This document shows positions 50,792-57,652 of a stretch of 64,000 nt of DNA, in pieces; the stretch's first letter is position 1, and every line of letters begins with the position of its first letter. A model generated the notes under the pieces. That model was not told the DNA's origin. It saw nothing but the letters and a program-made list of their open reading frames with translations, and did no database searches. The translations under genes and the position numbers were made by a program. The DNA comes from an uncultured Lentisphaeraceae bacterium (lineage in GTDB: Bacteria > Verrucomicrobiota > Kiritimatiellia > RFP12 > UBA1067), in contig CAYTWE010000005.1 in the NCBI GenBank assembly GCA_964440985.1, positions 1,206-65,205 of the forward strand, read 5' to 3'.

Positions 50792-52228
50792 ATGAACAAC
50801 AACAAGGCTACGTCGTTTCGGTGGATCATCTGCGCGATGCTCTTTGCCGCCACAACCGTCAATTACCTGGATCGTCAGGTTCTTTCCCTTACGTGGAAGG
50901 ACTTTATCGCACCAGAGTTTCACTGGAACGATTCGCACTACGGCGTAATCACCGGCTATTTCTCCCTCATTTACGCCGTGTGCATGCTTTTCGCCGGACG
51001 CATAGTCGACTGGCTCGGCACGATGAAAGGCTATTTGTGGGCCATATTCATATGGTCTGCCGCCGCCTGTGCCCATGCGGCCTGCGGTTGGGCGACGATG
51101 CACATCGAGGGCGTGGAATCCATCGCGGCGATGAAGGCGATTGAGTCCGGCTCGGCTCTCGCGGTCGCCGTCGGCTCCACATCGATGTGGCTGTTCCTCG
51201 CCTGCCGCTGCTTCCTCGGTTTGGGCGAGGCCGGAAACTTCCCGGCCGCAATCCGTGTGACCTCGGAGTATTTTCCGAAGAAGGATCGTGCGTTCGCGAC
51301 GTCAATCTTCAATTCAGGCTCGTCGGTCGGCGCCTTGGCCGCACCTGCGCTCATCCCGCCTATGGCGAAGTGCTGGGGGTGGGAATCGGCGTTCGTGGTC
51401 ATCGGTGCGCTCGGCTTCATCTGGATGGGATTCTGGATGCTCTTCTACCGCAAGCCGGAGGCCAGTCCGCACGTCAACGCTGCGGAGCTTGCCTACATCA
51501 ATTCCGACAATGCGGCAGGTGCGGACGCCACAGCCAAGGATGACGGGAAGGGCGTATCCATATGGAAATGCTTCACACTCAAGCACACGTGGGCGCTTCT
51601 GCTCGGACGCTTCACGACCGACGGCGTTTGGTGGTTCTTCCTCTTCTGGACGCCAAGCTATCTTTCAGACCAGTTTGGCTACACCAGTTCGTCTGGCATG
51701 GGCATGACGCTCATCATCGTCCTCTACGCCATCGTGACGTTCCTCTCCATCTACCTCTGCAAGATTCCGACATGGTTCGTTGACAGGAAGGGCATGAATC
51801 CGTACGAAGGGCGCATGGTTGCGATGTTCATCTTCGCGTGTCTTCCGCTCCTTGCGCTCGGCGCCCAGCCGCTCGGCTCGATGAGCGCGTGGTGGCCCGC
51901 CATCCTGATCGGCATCGCCTGCGCAGGACATCAGGCCTGGAGCGCAAACGTGTACTCCGTAGTCGGCGACATGTTCCCCAAGTCCACGATAGGCACTCTC
52001 ACCGGCATCGCCGGCCTTGCGTCCGGATGCGGCAGCTTCCTCGTCAACATCGGAGCCGGCAAGCTCTTTACGTGGTCGGCGGCGCAGGGCGATGCATTCG
52101 CGTTCCTCGGCTACACCGGCAAGCCCGCCGGCTACATGGTGATGTTCTGCTACTGTGCGTTTGCGTACCTTATCGGCTGGACGTGCATGAAGGTGCTCGT
52201 TCCGAAATACAGGCCGGTTGAACTCTGA
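50792..52228 (+). CDS. MFS transporter, ExuT-like hexuronate permease
   Basis: RWIICAMLFAATTVNYLDRQ, GLGEAGNFPAAI, EYFPKKDRAFAT, FWTPSYL, HQAWSAN. Confidence 0.85.
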   Translation: MNNNKATSFRWIICAMLFAATTVNYLDRQVLSLTWKDFIAPEFHWNDSHYGVITGYFSLIYAVCMLFAGRIVDWLGTMKGYLWAIFIWSAAACAHAACGWATMHIEGVESIAAMKAIESGSALAVAVGSTSMWLFLACRCFLGLGEAGNFPAAIRVTSEYFPKKDRAFATSIFNSGSSVGALAAPALIPPMAKCWGWESAFVVIGALGFIWMGFWMLFYRKPEASPHVNAAELAYINSDNAAGADATAKDDGKGVSIWKCFTLKHTWALLLGRFTTDGVWWFFLFWTPSYLSDQFGYTSSSGMGMTLIIVLYAIVTFLSIYLCKIPTWFVDRKGMNPYEGRMVAMFIFACLPLLALGAQPLGSMSAWWPAILIGIACAGHQAWSANVYSVVGDMFPKSTIGTLTGIAGLASGCGSFLVNIGAGKLFTWSAAQGDAFAFLGYTGKPAGYMVMFCYCAFAYLIGWTCMKVLVPKYRPVEL

Positions 52229-52249: not shown

Positions 52250-53632
52250 ATGAAGGACGTGTTCGCGTACGTAATCGGTCTCGGCGCATCTGTGATGATG
52301 CCCGTGATATTCACTGTTCTTGGAGTGTGCATCGGCGTAAAGTTCTCCAAGGCGCTGAAATCCGGACTGCTTGTCGGAGTCGGCTTCGTCGGGCTTGGTG
52401 TCGTCACCGGGCTTCTGACGAATGGCGCGAACAACCTCGGCGCCGCGCTCGGACAGATGACGGAAATATACCGCCTGAACCTTTCGTTCTTCGACCTCGG
52501 TTGGCCGGCCGCCGCTGCCGTAGCGTATTCGACTGCGGTTGGCGCTTTCATCATTCCGGTATGTCTTGGCGTGAACGTGCTGATGCTCGTCACAGGGACT
52601 ACGCGTACGGTGAACATAGATCTCTGGAACTACTGGCACTTCGCGTTCCTCGGCGGCATTGTGTTCTACGCCACGGATTCGCTCGCCTGGGCGTTCTACG
52701 CGGCGGTTGTGCTGTATGTCATCACGCTCTGCATGGCGGATTTCACCGCCAAGGGATTTCAGGGCTACTACAAGGACATGGACGGCATTTCCATTCCGCA
52801 GCCGTTCTGCCAGAGCTTCACGCCGTTCGCCGTCGGCATCGGCTGGCTGCTTGACAGGATTCCCGGCTTTGACCGCCTCGACATAGATGCCGCGGGGATG
52901 AAGCGGAAGTTCGGCCTCTTCGGCGATCCGCTTTTCCTTGGCGTCGTAATCGGATGCGTCATCGGCGCACTTGCCTGCCCGACGTGGAATGCAGTCGTCG
53001 ACCGCATCCCCAAGATACTCGCCCTCGGCGTCACGCTTGGCGCCGTCATGGAGTTGATTCCGCGCATCACGTCGCTTTTCATTGAAGGGCTGAAGCCGAT
53101 TCAGGAGGCGACACGCTCGTTTGTGGAGCGCAGGTTCTCCGGTCTGAAAGGGCTTTCCATCGGAATGTCGCCGGCTGTGGTCATCGGACATCCCACTACG
53201 CTGGTCGTCTCAATCCTGCTCATACCTGTCATACTTGTGCTGGCGGCGTTCCTTCCCGGCAACAGGTTCCTGCCGCTTGCGTCGCTCGCAGGAATGTTCT
53301 ACCTGTTTCCGTGCGTACTTCCGATCACGAAGGGCAACGTACCGAAGACGTTTGTCGTAGGTCTTGTCGCGCTTGTTGCCGGGCTGTATTTCATAACGAA
53401 CCTGACACCGGCGTTCACGAAGGCTGTCGTGGCGGTGAACGATGCCGCATACAGCGTTCCGCAGGGGATGGATGGCGTCGCCGCCCTCGATTTCGCTTCC
53501 GCATTCTGGTGCTGGCTTCTGTATCATCTCACGGTCTCGCTAAAGACTGTCGGCGCAATTGCCGCCGGTGCGTTGGCGGCGGCAATGATCGCCGTGAATT
53601 TCGTGAGAATCAGAAGGCTGTCATCAAGGTGA
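52250..53632 (+). CDS. GatC-like (galactitol PTS IIC family) membrane protein, orphan
   Basis: IGLGASVMMPVI, DLGWPAAAA, TRTVNIDLWNYWH, LIPRITSLFIEGLKPI, IGMSPAVVIGHP. Confidence 0.85.
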   Translation: MKDVFAYVIGLGASVMMPVIFTVLGVCIGVKFSKALKSGLLVGVGFVGLGVVTGLLTNGANNLGAALGQMTEIYRLNLSFFDLGWPAAAAVAYSTAVGAFIIPVCLGVNVLMLVTGTTRTVNIDLWNYWHFAFLGGIVFYATDSLAWAFYAAVVLYVITLCMADFTAKGFQGYYKDMDGISIPQPFCQSFTPFAVGIGWLLDRIPGFDRLDIDAAGMKRKFGLFGDPLFLGVVIGCVIGALACPTWNAVVDRIPKILALGVTLGAVMELIPRITSLFIEGLKPIQEATRSFVERRFSGLKGLSIGMSPAVVIGHPTTLVVSILLIPVILVLAAFLPGNRFLPLASLAGMFYLFPCVLPITKGNVPKTFVVGLVALVAGLYFITNLTPAFTKAVVAVNDAAYSVPQGMDGVAALDFASAFWCWLLYHLTVSLKTVGAIAAGALAAAMIAVNFVRIRRLSSR

Positions 53633-53675: not shown

Positions 53676-55067
53676 ATGAGAAAAGCGTTGATTGCATTAG
53701 CCGCCGTTGCGGCATCTGCGTTGGCGATGGGGGACTATGAGGCGAAATGGGAATCGCTCGACAAGAGGCCGGTGCCGCAGTGGTGGACGGATGCGAAGTT
53801 CGGCATCTTCATCCACTGGGGGCCCTACGCCGTGCCTGCGTACGCGCCCACGCCCGACGGCAAGAAGTTCAATTCCGACCTCTATGCGGAATGGTATCAC
53901 GGCAAGCTTATCGGCAATAACAAGAAGTTTGCCGAACACCATGAAAAGATGTACGGCAAGGCACCGTACGGCAATTTCGCCGCCGAATTCAAGGTCGAGA
54001 ACTTCGACGCGAAGAAGTGGGCCGATCTCTTCAAGCGGGCCGGCGCAAGGTACGTGGTGCTGACGTCGAAGCACCACGACGGCTATGCGCTGTGGCCCAG
54101 TCCGGAGACTCCGTACTACAACTCGGTGATGCTTGGCTCCGGACGTGACATCGCCCGCGAGTTCTGCGACGCCATGCGCGAGGCGGGGCTGAAGCGCGGC
54201 TTCTACTACTCGATGCTCGAATATGCAAACCCGTACTATCCGAGCAGGCGGCACGAGAAGGCCAAGACCGCGCTTTCGATCGAGGAATGGAACGAGCGCA
54301 TGAACCTGCCGCAGCTCAAGGAACTCGCCGACGTCTACGAGGCGGACATAATCTGGCCTGACGGCGAGTGGGATTTCCCGTCCAGCAGGCACTGCTCCGA
54401 AAAGTATCTCGCATGGCTCTTCAACGAATCGAAGGTCAAGGACACGGTGGTCGTGAACGACCGCTGGGGCAACGACAGCCGTGGACGTCATGGCGGACAC
54501 TACACTACGGAGTATCTGCTTGAGGGCTTCAACAACGACGGCGTGAGCGACACGCATCCGTGGGAGGAGTGCCGCGGCATCGGAAACTCCTTCGGCTACA
54601 ACCGCTATGAGACGCCGGACGAGTACATGACACGTGAGCGCTGCATAGAGACGCTTGCATCCTGCGTATCGCGCGGCGGCAACCTGCTTCTCAACATCGG
54701 GCCGACGGCTGACGGTCGCATCCCCGCCATAATGCAGGATCGTCTTCTCGCCATGGGACGCTGGCTTGACGTCAACGGCGAGGCGATATACGCAACCCAG
54801 CGGGGCGGCGTGAACGACCCAGGCGCGAAGGACAGCAAGGTCTACTATACGCGCAAGGGCAACGACCTCTACGCAATCTGCTTCAAGTGGCCGAAGGGTG
54901 AACTCAAGCTCTCCGGGGTGGGGACGGTCAAGGGCGTGTCGCTTCTCGGCTCTCAGGTCGCAATCGGATTCAAGGCCGATGCCGACTCCGTTGCGATCGA
55001 CGCTTCGTCAGTTTCGCCTGCGGATATGCCGTGCGAACTTGCCTGGGTGTTCAAACTCAGCCGATAA
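53676..55067 (+). CDS. GH29 alpha-L-fucosidase, secreted
   Basis: WWTDAKFGIFIHWG, TSKHHDGYALW, IWPDG, VNDRWG, WEECRGIGNSFGYN, GGNLLLNIGP. Confidence 0.92.
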   Translation: MRKALIALAAVAASALAMGDYEAKWESLDKRPVPQWWTDAKFGIFIHWGPYAVPAYAPTPDGKKFNSDLYAEWYHGKLIGNNKKFAEHHEKMYGKAPYGNFAAEFKVENFDAKKWADLFKRAGARYVVLTSKHHDGYALWPSPETPYYNSVMLGSGRDIAREFCDAMREAGLKRGFYYSMLEYANPYYPSRRHEKAKTALSIEEWNERMNLPQLKELADVYEADIIWPDGEWDFPSSRHCSEKYLAWLFNESKVKDTVVVNDRWGNDSRGRHGGHYTTEYLLEGFNNDGVSDTHPWEECRGIGNSFGYNRYETPDEYMTRERCIETLASCVSRGGNLLLNIGPTADGRIPAIMQDRLLAMGRWLDVNGEAIYATQRGGVNDPGAKDSKVYYTRKGNDLYAICFKWPKGELKLSGVGTVKGVSLLGSQVAIGFKADADSVAIDASSVSPADMPCELAWVFKLSR

Positions 55068-55082
55068 GAACTGGAGAAAACC

Positions 55083-56024
55083 ATGAAACACAGCATAGCA
55101 GCGATTGTTTCCGCCGCCGTCATGTGCGCCGGTGCAACAGAAACGAAGTATTCCGTGCAGGTGGCCTGCCATCCCGACGACTTCAGGACGTACGACACCG
55201 AGACGATCCGCGACCGCTTCGCGATGGAGAAGGTGATGGTTTCAGACGAAATCCGCGTCACGTACACGATGTACGACAGGATGGTTTACGGCGGTGCGAT
55301 GCCGGTGAAGTCCGAGCTCTCGCTTGAGCCTTTCCCGGAGCTCAAGGCCGCGCATTTCCTTGACAGGCGCGAACTTGGCGTAATCAACGTCGGCGGAACG
55401 GGCGTTGTGACCGTTGACGGCGAGGAGTACGCCCTTGAGTTCAAGGAGGCGCTTTACGTCGGGTGCGGGAAGAAGGACGTAAAGTTCAAATCGCTTGACG
55501 CAGACCGTCCGGCGAAGTTCTACATCAACTCCGCCCCTGCATACAGGGAATTCGTGACGCAGCGCATTACGTCCGACCAGAACTGCAGGAAGCCGGGCTA
55601 CACGATCGGCAACTACATCAAGGCCGGAAGTCTGGAGGAATCGAACGACCGCGTGATCAACCAGCTCATAGTTGCGCCTGTCCTCCGGAAGAAATCCGGC
55701 GGCGGATGCAACCAGCTTCAGATGGGGCTTACGGAACTCAAGCCCGGAAGCGTGTGGAACACAATGCCGCAGCACACGCACAACCGCCGCATGGAGGTCT
55801 ACTTCTACTTCAACGTTCCCAAGGGACAGGCTATCTGCCATCAGATTGGCAAGCCGCAGGAGCAGCGCATCGTGTGGCTCCACAACGAACAGGCTATCGC
55901 CAACCCGGAGTGGAGCGTCCACTCCGCCGCCGGAACGTCGAACTACATGTTCATCTGGGGAATGGCCGGGGAGAACCTCGACTACGGTGACATGGACAAG
56001 ATACCCTGCCTTGAAATGCGCTGA
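55083..56024 (+). CDS. kduI: 5-keto-4-deoxyuronate isomerase with an N-terminal signal-peptide-like extension
   Basis: [78 protein letters not shown]. Confidence 0.92.
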
Positions 56025-56071: not shown

Positions 56072-57652
56072 ATGATTAAGACCGTACTTCTCGTTCTGTA
56101 TTTTGCGACGATGCTTGCCATCGGGTTCGCCTGCCGGAAACGGGCGAAGAACGTTTCAGGTTTTGTGCTTGGAGGCCGCACCGTCGGGCCGTGGCTGACT
56201 GCGTTTGCGTACGGTACGTCCTACTTTTCCGCTGTCGTGTTCGTTGGATATGCCGGCCAGTTCGGGTGGCGGTACGGCATATCCGCGACATGGGCGGGAA
56301 TCGGAAATGCGCTGATAGGTTCTCTTCTCGCCTGGGCGGTGCTTGGACGCCGCACCCGCATCATGACGCAGCATCTTGATTCGGCGACAATGCCGGACTT
56401 CTTCGAGAAGAGATTCGGTAGCCCTGCGTTGAAGATTGCCGCCGCGACGATCATATTCATCTTTCTGATACCGTACACCGCATCGCTGTACAATGGCCTC
56501 TCGCGTCTGTTCGGCATGGCGTTCTCGATAGACTATGCGTGGTGCATCGTCCTGATGTCCGTGCTTACCGCGATATACGTGATCGCCGGCGGATACATGG
56601 CGACGGCCATCAACGATTTCATACAGGGTATCGTGATGCTCGTGGGCATATCGGCGGTCATATGGGCTACGCTCGAGACGAAGGGCGGGCTTCTCGCCTC
56701 GCTTGACGGCTTGGCCCGCGTTCCCGGCCCGGCGATCGTCCCCGGCGGTGAAGCGACGCCCGGCATATTTACGTCCTTCCTCGGCCCGGAACCGCTTAAC
56801 CTCCTGTTTGTGGTGCTGCTCACATCGCTCGGCACATGGGGGCTTCCGCAGATGGTGCAGAAGTTCTACGCCATCACGAACGAAGGCGCCATAAAGAAGG
56901 GTACTGTCATCTCAACGCTCTTCGCATTCGTCGTTGCCGGCGGATGCTATTTTCTTGGCGGGTTCGGACGTCTCTTCACCGATGTTCTCGATGTTGGGGC
57001 GAACGGGCTGCCGGCGGGCGGGTTCGACGCAATCGTCCCGAAGATGCTTGAAGGCCTCTCGCCGCTCCTCCTTGCGCTTGTCGTGGTGCTTGTGCTGTCG
57101 GCATCGATGAGTACGCTCTCTTCGCTCGTGATGACATCCTCATCCACATTCACCATGGACTTCATCAACGGTCTCAAGAAGCGCAAGATGAGCGACTCCG
57201 GACAGGTGCTCTGCATCCGTCTTCTTGTTGTCGTATTCATCGCCATCTCCGGCGGCCTTGCCCTTGTTCAGTACAAGAGCAGCAGTCCGATAGCGTTCAT
57301 CGCGCAGATGATGGGCGTGTCGTGGGGTGCGATGGCCGGTGCGTTTCTTGCGCCGTTTCTGTATGCGCTCTACTCGAAGCGCGTGACGGCGGCATCCTGC
57401 TGGACGTGCTTCATTGCGGCCCCGGTGTTCACGCTCGTGTGCGTGTTCTGCAACGACTCCATGCCTCAGGTTCTCAAGTCTCCGATCAACACAGGCGCAA
57501 TCGCGATGCTCGCCGGACTTGTGATCGTTCCGGTCGTCAACCTGTTCACCCGGAGGCCTCCCAGCGACATTGTGGATGGCTCATTCGCCTGCTATGACAG
57601 GACGACGGTCGTTCCGCAGTCCACTGCCCTCGGTGCAACGACCGAGAAATGA
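56072..57652 (+). CDS. Sodium:solute symporter (SSS family)
   Basis: FVLGGRTVGPW..AF..GTSYFSAV.FVG, GGYMATAINDFIQG, WGLPQMV.KFY, SASMSTLSS. Confidence 0.9.
   Translation: MIKTVLLVLYFATMLAIGFACRKRAKNVSGFVLGGRTVGPWLTAFAYGTSYFSAVVFVGYAGQFGWRYGISATWAGIGNALIGSLLAWAVLGRRTRIMTQHLDSATMPDFFEKRFGSPALKIAAATIIFIFLIPYTASLYNGLSRLFGMAFSIDYAWCIVLMSVLTAIYVIAGGYMATAINDFIQGIVMLVGISAVIWATLETKGGLLASLDGLARVPGPAIVPGGEATPGIFTSFLGPEPLNLLFVVLLTSLGTWGLPQMVQKFYAITNEGAIKKGTVISTLFAFVVAGGCYFLGGFGRLFTDVLDVGANGLPAGGFDAIVPKMLEGLSPLLLALVVVLVLSASMSTLSSLVMTSSSTFTMDFINGLKKRKMSDSGQVLCIRLLVVVFIAISGGLALVQYKSSSPIAFIAQMMGVSWGAMAGAFLAPFLYALYSKRVTAASCWTCFIAAPVFTLVCVFCNDSMPQVLKSPINTGAIAMLAGLVIVPVVNLFTRRPPSDIVDGSFACYDRTTVVPQSTALGATTEK

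Follow-up and report, generated by a model that had tools for sequence, protein, structure and literature searches.

The isomerase KduI encoded in the window (the whole stretch of 64,000 nucleotides analyzed here, from an uncultured gut bacterium of the class Kiritimatiellia labelled Lentisphaeraceae) carries about 20 extra residues at the N-terminus of an otherwise complete enzyme, and these are predicted to form a Sec/signal peptidase I (SPI) signal (Table 1). Textbook models place canonical KduI in the cytoplasm, where its substrate, 5-dehydro-4-deoxy-D-glucuronate (DKI/DHU), is made by Ogl or UGL (PMC12838403), and the window protein is predicted to depart from that location. A literature search found no published description of an exported KduI and no localization data for one. 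Taken as a whole, the evidence is best explained by a KduI that is exported to the periplasm and belongs to a transferred permease-KduI-MFS module, an explanation that we consider likely. New here are the finding of this KduI in a second phylum, its apparent takeover from the native gene, a junction that has lost its Gln, and a signal that has been truncated repeatedly.

Table 1. Position of the KduI gene, its parts and its neighbours in the window
Feature	Coordinates	Strand	Basis or family
ExuT-like MFS transporter	50792..52228	+	PF07690
GatC/UlaA-type PTS IIC-like orphan permease	52250..53632	+	PF03611
GH29 alpha-L-fucosidase with its own signal peptide	53676..55067	+	PF01120, PF16757
Shine-Dalgarno-like GGAG	55073..55076	+	6-nt spacer to ATG 55083, read from the sequence
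KduI ORF (313 aa)	55083..56024	+	
Predicted Sec/SPI signal peptide, codons 1-18	55083..55136	+	Translation, rule-based n/h/c scoring, layout in orthologues
Predicted mature KduI part	55137..56024	+	NF002091, PF04962, match to 9KD0, metal-site residues
Sodium:solute symporter (SSS), downstream of KduI	56072..57652	+	PF00474

The N-terminal extension as a predicted export signal

Residues 1 to 18 of the window KduI consist of Lys2, about 15 uncharged hydrophobic residues and Ala16-Gly17-Ala18, followed by Thr19. Besides Lys2 there are 17 uncharged residues (best 8-residue Kyte-Doolittle mean, 2.51), the hydrophobic core is short and alanine-rich, and Ala16 and Ala18 provide the small residues at -3 and -1; cleavage is probably after Ala18. 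Signals were called with a simple rule that we wrote for the n, h and c regions (positive n-region, uncharged h-region of at least 7-15 residues, small residues at -3 and -1, no Pro at +1), together with comparison among relatives. The window KduI and nearly all members of its clade pass the rule, whereas none of 29 ordinary KduI proteins does. Of 1442 ORFs called crudely across the genome about 17% pass, a rough background because shadow ORFs are included. Signals like that of KduI are also present on the neighbouring GH29 and DUF5107 proteins, and the family-5 binding protein has a lipobox-type signal. A Tat signal was discarded: there is no twin-arginine motif and no Arg within residues 1-30.

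Whether relatives share the extension had been asked when the window was first read, and they do. It is found at about 80 loci in two phyla (rumen and gut Kiritimatiellia and gut Bacteroidales), where the N-terminal Lys or Arg, the hydrophobic core and the small residues at -3 and -1 are kept and the actual residues drift. The same holds for the 120 best homologues of the window KduI (75-95% identical, mostly 312-316 residues), whose N-termini vary widely in sequence but are alike in their basic start, hydrophobic core and small -3/-1 residues. KduI of this type from rumen and gut Kiritimatiellia MAGs is 70-96% identical to the window protein (scan of species-representative genomes), and that of many gut Bacteroidales is 61-70% identical over the whole length. 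Cultured carriers among the latter include Bacteroides xylanisolvens XB1A, B. faecis, B. pyogenes and Paraprevotella xylaniphila, and strains of Phocaeicola, Barnesiella and Parabacteroides carry it as well.

The two phyla differ at the junction with the conserved core, which reads Ala/Gln in 52/52 Bacteroidales copies and in 0/27 Kiritimatiellia copies; in the window it is Ala/Thr-Glu. Gln at +1 is a phylum-specific mark of SPI substrates in Bacteroidota, known as the "Q-rule" (PMC5837995, PMC10653852), and the match of all 52 copies to this rule is therefore independent support for processing of the Bacteroidales proteins. The chain in the solved structure 9KD0 begins at the mature N-terminus and, over the aligned part, is identical to the B. 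xylanisolvens XB1A precursor without the signal. It represents the signal-less mature form, so the extension is not part of the fold.

Gene neighbourhood

The gene order in the window is MFS, GatC-like permease, GH29, KduI and SSS. In Bacteroides, genes for a CE8 pectinesterase and a GH88/105 enzyme, in divergent orientation, precede a GatC-like IIC permease, the exported KduI and an ExuT-like MFS transporter. The signal-bearing Bacteroides KduI (9KD0) resembles that of the window in its clade, its sequence, the length of its signal, the GatC-like gene upstream and the ExuT-like MFS gene nearby. In one Bacteroides genome the permease encoded immediately before the exported KduI shares 66% identity with that of the window, and the MFS transporter encoded right after the exported KduI in Bacteroides L100 shares 57% with the window MFS transporter. 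Nearly all Bacteroidales loci have a GatC-like gene immediately upstream of KduI, and most Kiritimatiellia loci have one within 2-4 kb; the ExuT-like MFS gene is common to about 20 of 53 Bacteroidales loci. Within the 301 sampled genomes of the class to which the window belongs, the GatC-like gene has close copies only in the window genome (G000) and in G181, the same two that have a signal-bearing KduI. In B. thetaiotaomicron, BT4107 is annotated as a PTS IIC protein (PMC10434189); by synteny, we infer that its neighbour BT4106 is an exported KduI.

Since no PTS_IIB was found in the window genome, the IIC-like permease is probably a secondary carrier; an Enzyme I family gene is present. In contrast to the Bacteroides locus, that of the window has a GH29 gene between permease and KduI, an arrangement seen only in the window's genus (the window and G181/L038) and at that position in none of the other loci. 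This insertion ties fucose release to the uronate module. The earlier note had suggested that the isomerized product might be taken up by the adjacent SSS, ExuT or GatC carriers. The GatC-like and ExuT-like proteins hold up as candidates, their counterparts being the same neighbours in Bacteroides, but the SSS does not: its gene adjoins KduI only in L003 and L038, which makes it a neighbour only in the window's genus and not a conserved partner.

Probable origin and transfer of the module

In the sample of 301 genomes of the window's class, 51 (G000 included) have a KduI, and it bears a signal in only two of the 301, G000 and the same-genus G181 (96% identical). The remaining KduI proteins of the class are ordinary, with about 276 residues and mostly 40-48% identity, and seven genomes of the same family are among their carriers. 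In a maximum-likelihood tree (quick search), the signal-bearing KduI of Kiritimatiellia form one clade (SH-aLRT 99), and in the best tree this clade lies inside the signal clade of Bacteroidales, with ordinary Bacteroides KduI as the next relative; a branch with a support of 99 separates native Kiritimatiellia KduI. Bacteroidales monophyly, that is, a sister relationship, was not rejected by the AU test (p 0.265, for a group named after seeing the tree), so that the direction of transfer from Bacteroidales to Kiritimatiellia rests mainly on distribution and not on the tree. Most likely, the permease-KduI-MFS module entered gut and rumen Kiritimatiellia by a single transfer from Bacteroidales, and in the window's genus the native cytoplasmic KduI was most likely replaced by the transferred gene.

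Shortened signals in Kiritimatiellia

In a large subgroup of Kiritimatiellia (loci L039-L042, L045-L047, L049, L053, L056, L058-L061 and L072), the N-terminus of KduI is reduced to about 10 uncharged residues with no Lys or Arg. These short forms have good ribosome-binding sites before their starts and stop codons just upstream of them. At least four changes between long and short forms are required on the KduI tree, and one homologue, P0081, is devoid of any extension. Many Kiritimatiellia loci, including many of those with a short form, have kduD directly downstream of the signal-clade KduI. In Kiritimatiellia the signal may be dispensable or decaying, and export may not be strictly required there.

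All these features would also fit a signal-like N-terminus that is the decaying relic of a transfer, with a Kiritimatiellia KduI that is poorly exported, or not at all, and works in the cytoplasm beside KduD. Such a relic seems unlikely, considering that the window copy and its same-genus relative have the complete n/h/c layout and that several other Kiritimatiellia lineages preserve it while their residues are quite unlike, a sign that the layout is under selection. Moreover, the GatC-like partner has been retained, and the DKI-producing GH88-like enzyme is itself predicted to be exported, as a lipoprotein.

The N-terminus could also remain uncleaved, or be lipid-modified in some relatives, which would leave the enzyme anchored on the periplasmic side of the inner membrane and not free in the periplasm. 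The hydrophobic stretch runs without a break and has a Cys at position 15, and in relatives of 312 aa a Cys follows small residues in a context that fits the loose PROSITE lipobox pattern. However, a stretch of about 15 residues is short for a stable membrane anchor, sites of the Ala-x-Ala type are conserved across the clade, and Ala/Gln is invariant in Bacteroidales. A lipoprotein (SPII) signal of the form [LVI][ASTVI][GAS]-Cys was rejected for the window protein, in which Ala-Val-Met precedes Cys15; the Met at -1 is unfit for a lipobox, and the Cys is not conserved. We regard a tethered enzyme as rather improbable, and prefer an exported and cleaved KduI.

Family assignment and uronate pathway

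The window ORF is a real KduI. It scores 364.1 bits against the NCBIfam equivalog NF002091 (cut-off, 250), with residues 25-312 aligned to positions 3-276 of the 277 in the profile, and matches PF04962 with an E value of 1e-17. Of the solved structures, 9KD0 matches best (E 1e-127, from residue 21 onwards), followed by 9KCZ and then by E. coli 1X8M and 1XRU; the position given earlier for the start of the KduI core, about residue 20, agrees well with these alignments. His231, His233, Glu238 and His280 align with the HxHx4E...H residues in the C-terminal cupin of 1XRU/1X8M, 9KD0 and 9KCZ, which we take to be the zinc ligands in the E. coli KduI structure. The window protein shares its equivalog, its mature length and this site with canonical KduI (EC 5.3.1.17; E. 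coli 1XRU/1X8M, L. rhamnosus 7E4S and the Bacteroides-type 9KCZ), and presumably also its place before KduD in the pathway. Canonical KduI, however, starts 2-5 residues before the conserved core and has no signal, whereas the extension of the window protein has about 20 residues. Conversion of DKI to 3-deoxy-D-glycero-2,5-hexodiulosonate (DKII) is the activity predicted for the window protein from family and context.

Another matter raised at first reading was whether a second, cytoplasmic kduI exists: none was found in the window genome, which is 93.8% complete. Bacteroides genomes differ in this respect, since they also keep an ordinary KduI. The exported-clade KduI is likewise the only one in Paraprevotella xylaniphila and in two other Kiritimatiellia MAGs, one of which has a shortened N-terminus. 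The window genome encodes its KduD (345 bits) on a different contig, with a Rossmann-type N-terminus and no signal; Eda is present and has no signal either. The sole GH88/105-like gene (contig C7:37069-38040 of G000, minus strand; open frame of 828 aa) codes for a far larger protein than is normal, which has about 400 additional residues and a lipoprotein-type signal, and this hydrolase is a probable lipoprotein. Three heparinase II/III-like genes were found in the genome, and PL8 and PL1 were not, which points to host glycosaminoglycan-type substrates rather than pectin. The presence of a single KduI in a genome with KduD, Eda and a GH88-like enzyme, and the adjacency of kduD in related loci, support a role in the conversion of DKI to DKII.

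It could be argued that the exported clade has acquired a new substrate and is a periplasmic isomerase for another keto-sugar acid, outside the step from DKI to DKII. Its members share only about 51% identity with ordinary Bacteroides KduI, carry two small insertions that the ordinary type lacks, and in Bacteroides species exist besides an ordinary KduI. Against this, the score is well above the equivalog cut-off, the metal site is kept, and kduD lies directly downstream in many loci; in the genomes named above where the exported type is the sole KduI, the step would otherwise be missing. We find a change of substrate hard to credit, and take the exported KduI to be one that would act on DKI.

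The start codon

The stop codon of the GH29 gene (TAA, 55065-55067) lies 15 nt before the KduI ATG at 55083, and the GGAG box reported in the earlier note directly upstream of this long start is indeed there, at the spacing given in Table 1. Purine-rich boxes of the GGAG/AAGGA type are also found 6-10 nt before the called starts of Kiritimatiellia orthologues. The same note held that no better internal start exists. In-frame alternatives are present at ATG codon 14 (55122) and GTG codons 25 (55155) and 27 (55161), but its claim stands insofar as none of them has a Shine-Dalgarno sequence or is conserved among orthologues. Met14 was rejected on these grounds, and so were GTG25 and GTG27, which would also cut residues conserved with both Bacteroides KduI types, 9KD0 and 9KCZ. 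That one of the three, none of which lies beyond the beginning of the conserved core, is the true start of an ordinary cytoplasmic KduI can practically be discounted, because ATG1 alone has GGAG at the right distance and the stretch upstream of the core is open and hydrophobic in the roughly 80 loci of the two phyla.

A putative periplasmic isomerization step

According to the mechanism that we propose, the KduI precursor would enter the Sec pathway and be cut by SPI after Ala18, leaving the mature enzyme in the periplasm. Exported lyases and the GH88-like lipoprotein would release the unsaturated uronate outside the cytoplasm, where it would turn spontaneously into DKI, and periplasmic KduI would isomerize DKI to DKII. 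The co-inherited GatC-like permease, the ExuT-like MFS transporter, or both, would then import DKII, to be reduced in the cytoplasm to KDG by the NADH-dependent KduD and then handled by Eda. As KduI requires no more than a metal ion, it would be the one step of the route that can move outside. Considering that DKI is probably made outside the cytoplasm, that KduI is predicted to be there too and that KduD needs NADH inside, periplasmic isomerization followed by import of DKII is the simplest reading. Isomerization before uptake had already been proposed in the earlier note, and the sequence comparisons made here lend it support.

We found no precedent for DKII import by a carrier of the GatC type. 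In Dickeya, KdgT is reported to take up KDG, DKI and DKII, and by analogy may serve as a precedent for DKII as an imported substrate; it belongs to a different transporter family, whereas the window candidates are an MFS transporter and a PTS-IIC-type protein that lacks IIA/IIB. The E. coli sialic acid mutarotase NanM/YjhT is a periplasmic, cofactor-free helper that acts before uptake and speeds the change of anomer. The KduI proposed here would be analogous in that a periplasmic isomerization without cofactor supplies the form accepted by an inner-membrane carrier, but the two are unrelated in fold and chemistry, KduI moving a carbonyl group.

More tentatively, we suggest that a mobile module of three genes (GatC-type IIC permease, exported KduI and ExuT-like MFS) shifts the step from DKI to DKII into the periplasm, and that it crossed from Bacteroidales to gut Kiritimatiellia and there displaced the native cytoplasmic enzyme; this broader proposal is possible, and somewhat short of an even chance. 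If it is true, DKII and not DKI is imported, and the orphan PTS-IIC-type protein carries DKII independently of phosphorylation; both the substrate and this mode of working would be new to its family. The Kiritimatiellia in which the signal has repeatedly been truncated would in that case amount to a natural experiment on the need for a periplasmic location.

In models of pectin and glycosaminoglycan degradation, those of the well-studied gut Bacteroides included, every step after the unsaturated uronate is cytoplasmic. A periplasmic KduI would change the compound that crosses the inner membrane (DKII instead of DKI) and the role of a widespread orphan PTS-IIC-like permease, and would bear on why only the cofactor-free step moved outside. 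The idea is directly testable in genetically tractable Bacteroides. The Kiritimatiellia case would add that the module can be transferred between phyla that share the gut, that it can replace a native enzyme, and that its signal can be remodelled or lost in the new host.

Other KduI proteins with unusual N-termini

A few other KduI lineages have signal-like N-termini, among them P0123, P0129, P0135, P0227 and P0146 (representatives at 50% identity). Four further representatives of the family (P0171, P0201, P0203 and P0260), with 338-362 aa, have long alanine-rich N-termini resembling signal or transit peptides, and may be of eukaryotic (algal) origin. In L057 and L111, an extra linker of 12-15 residues separates the predicted cleavage site from the conserved core of KduI. 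P0018 (529 aa) combines a predicted signal peptide and a DUF4861 domain with a KduI of the short-form type, and could be a true fusion or a read-through of gene calling. Finally, five contigs with a KduI of the Kiritimatiellia type (L053, L056, L061, L051 and L038) are labelled as Azospirillum sp. 51_20, Lachnospira hominis, Barnesiella intestinihominis or Lentisphaeraceae, and are probably mis-binned or mislabelled MAGs.
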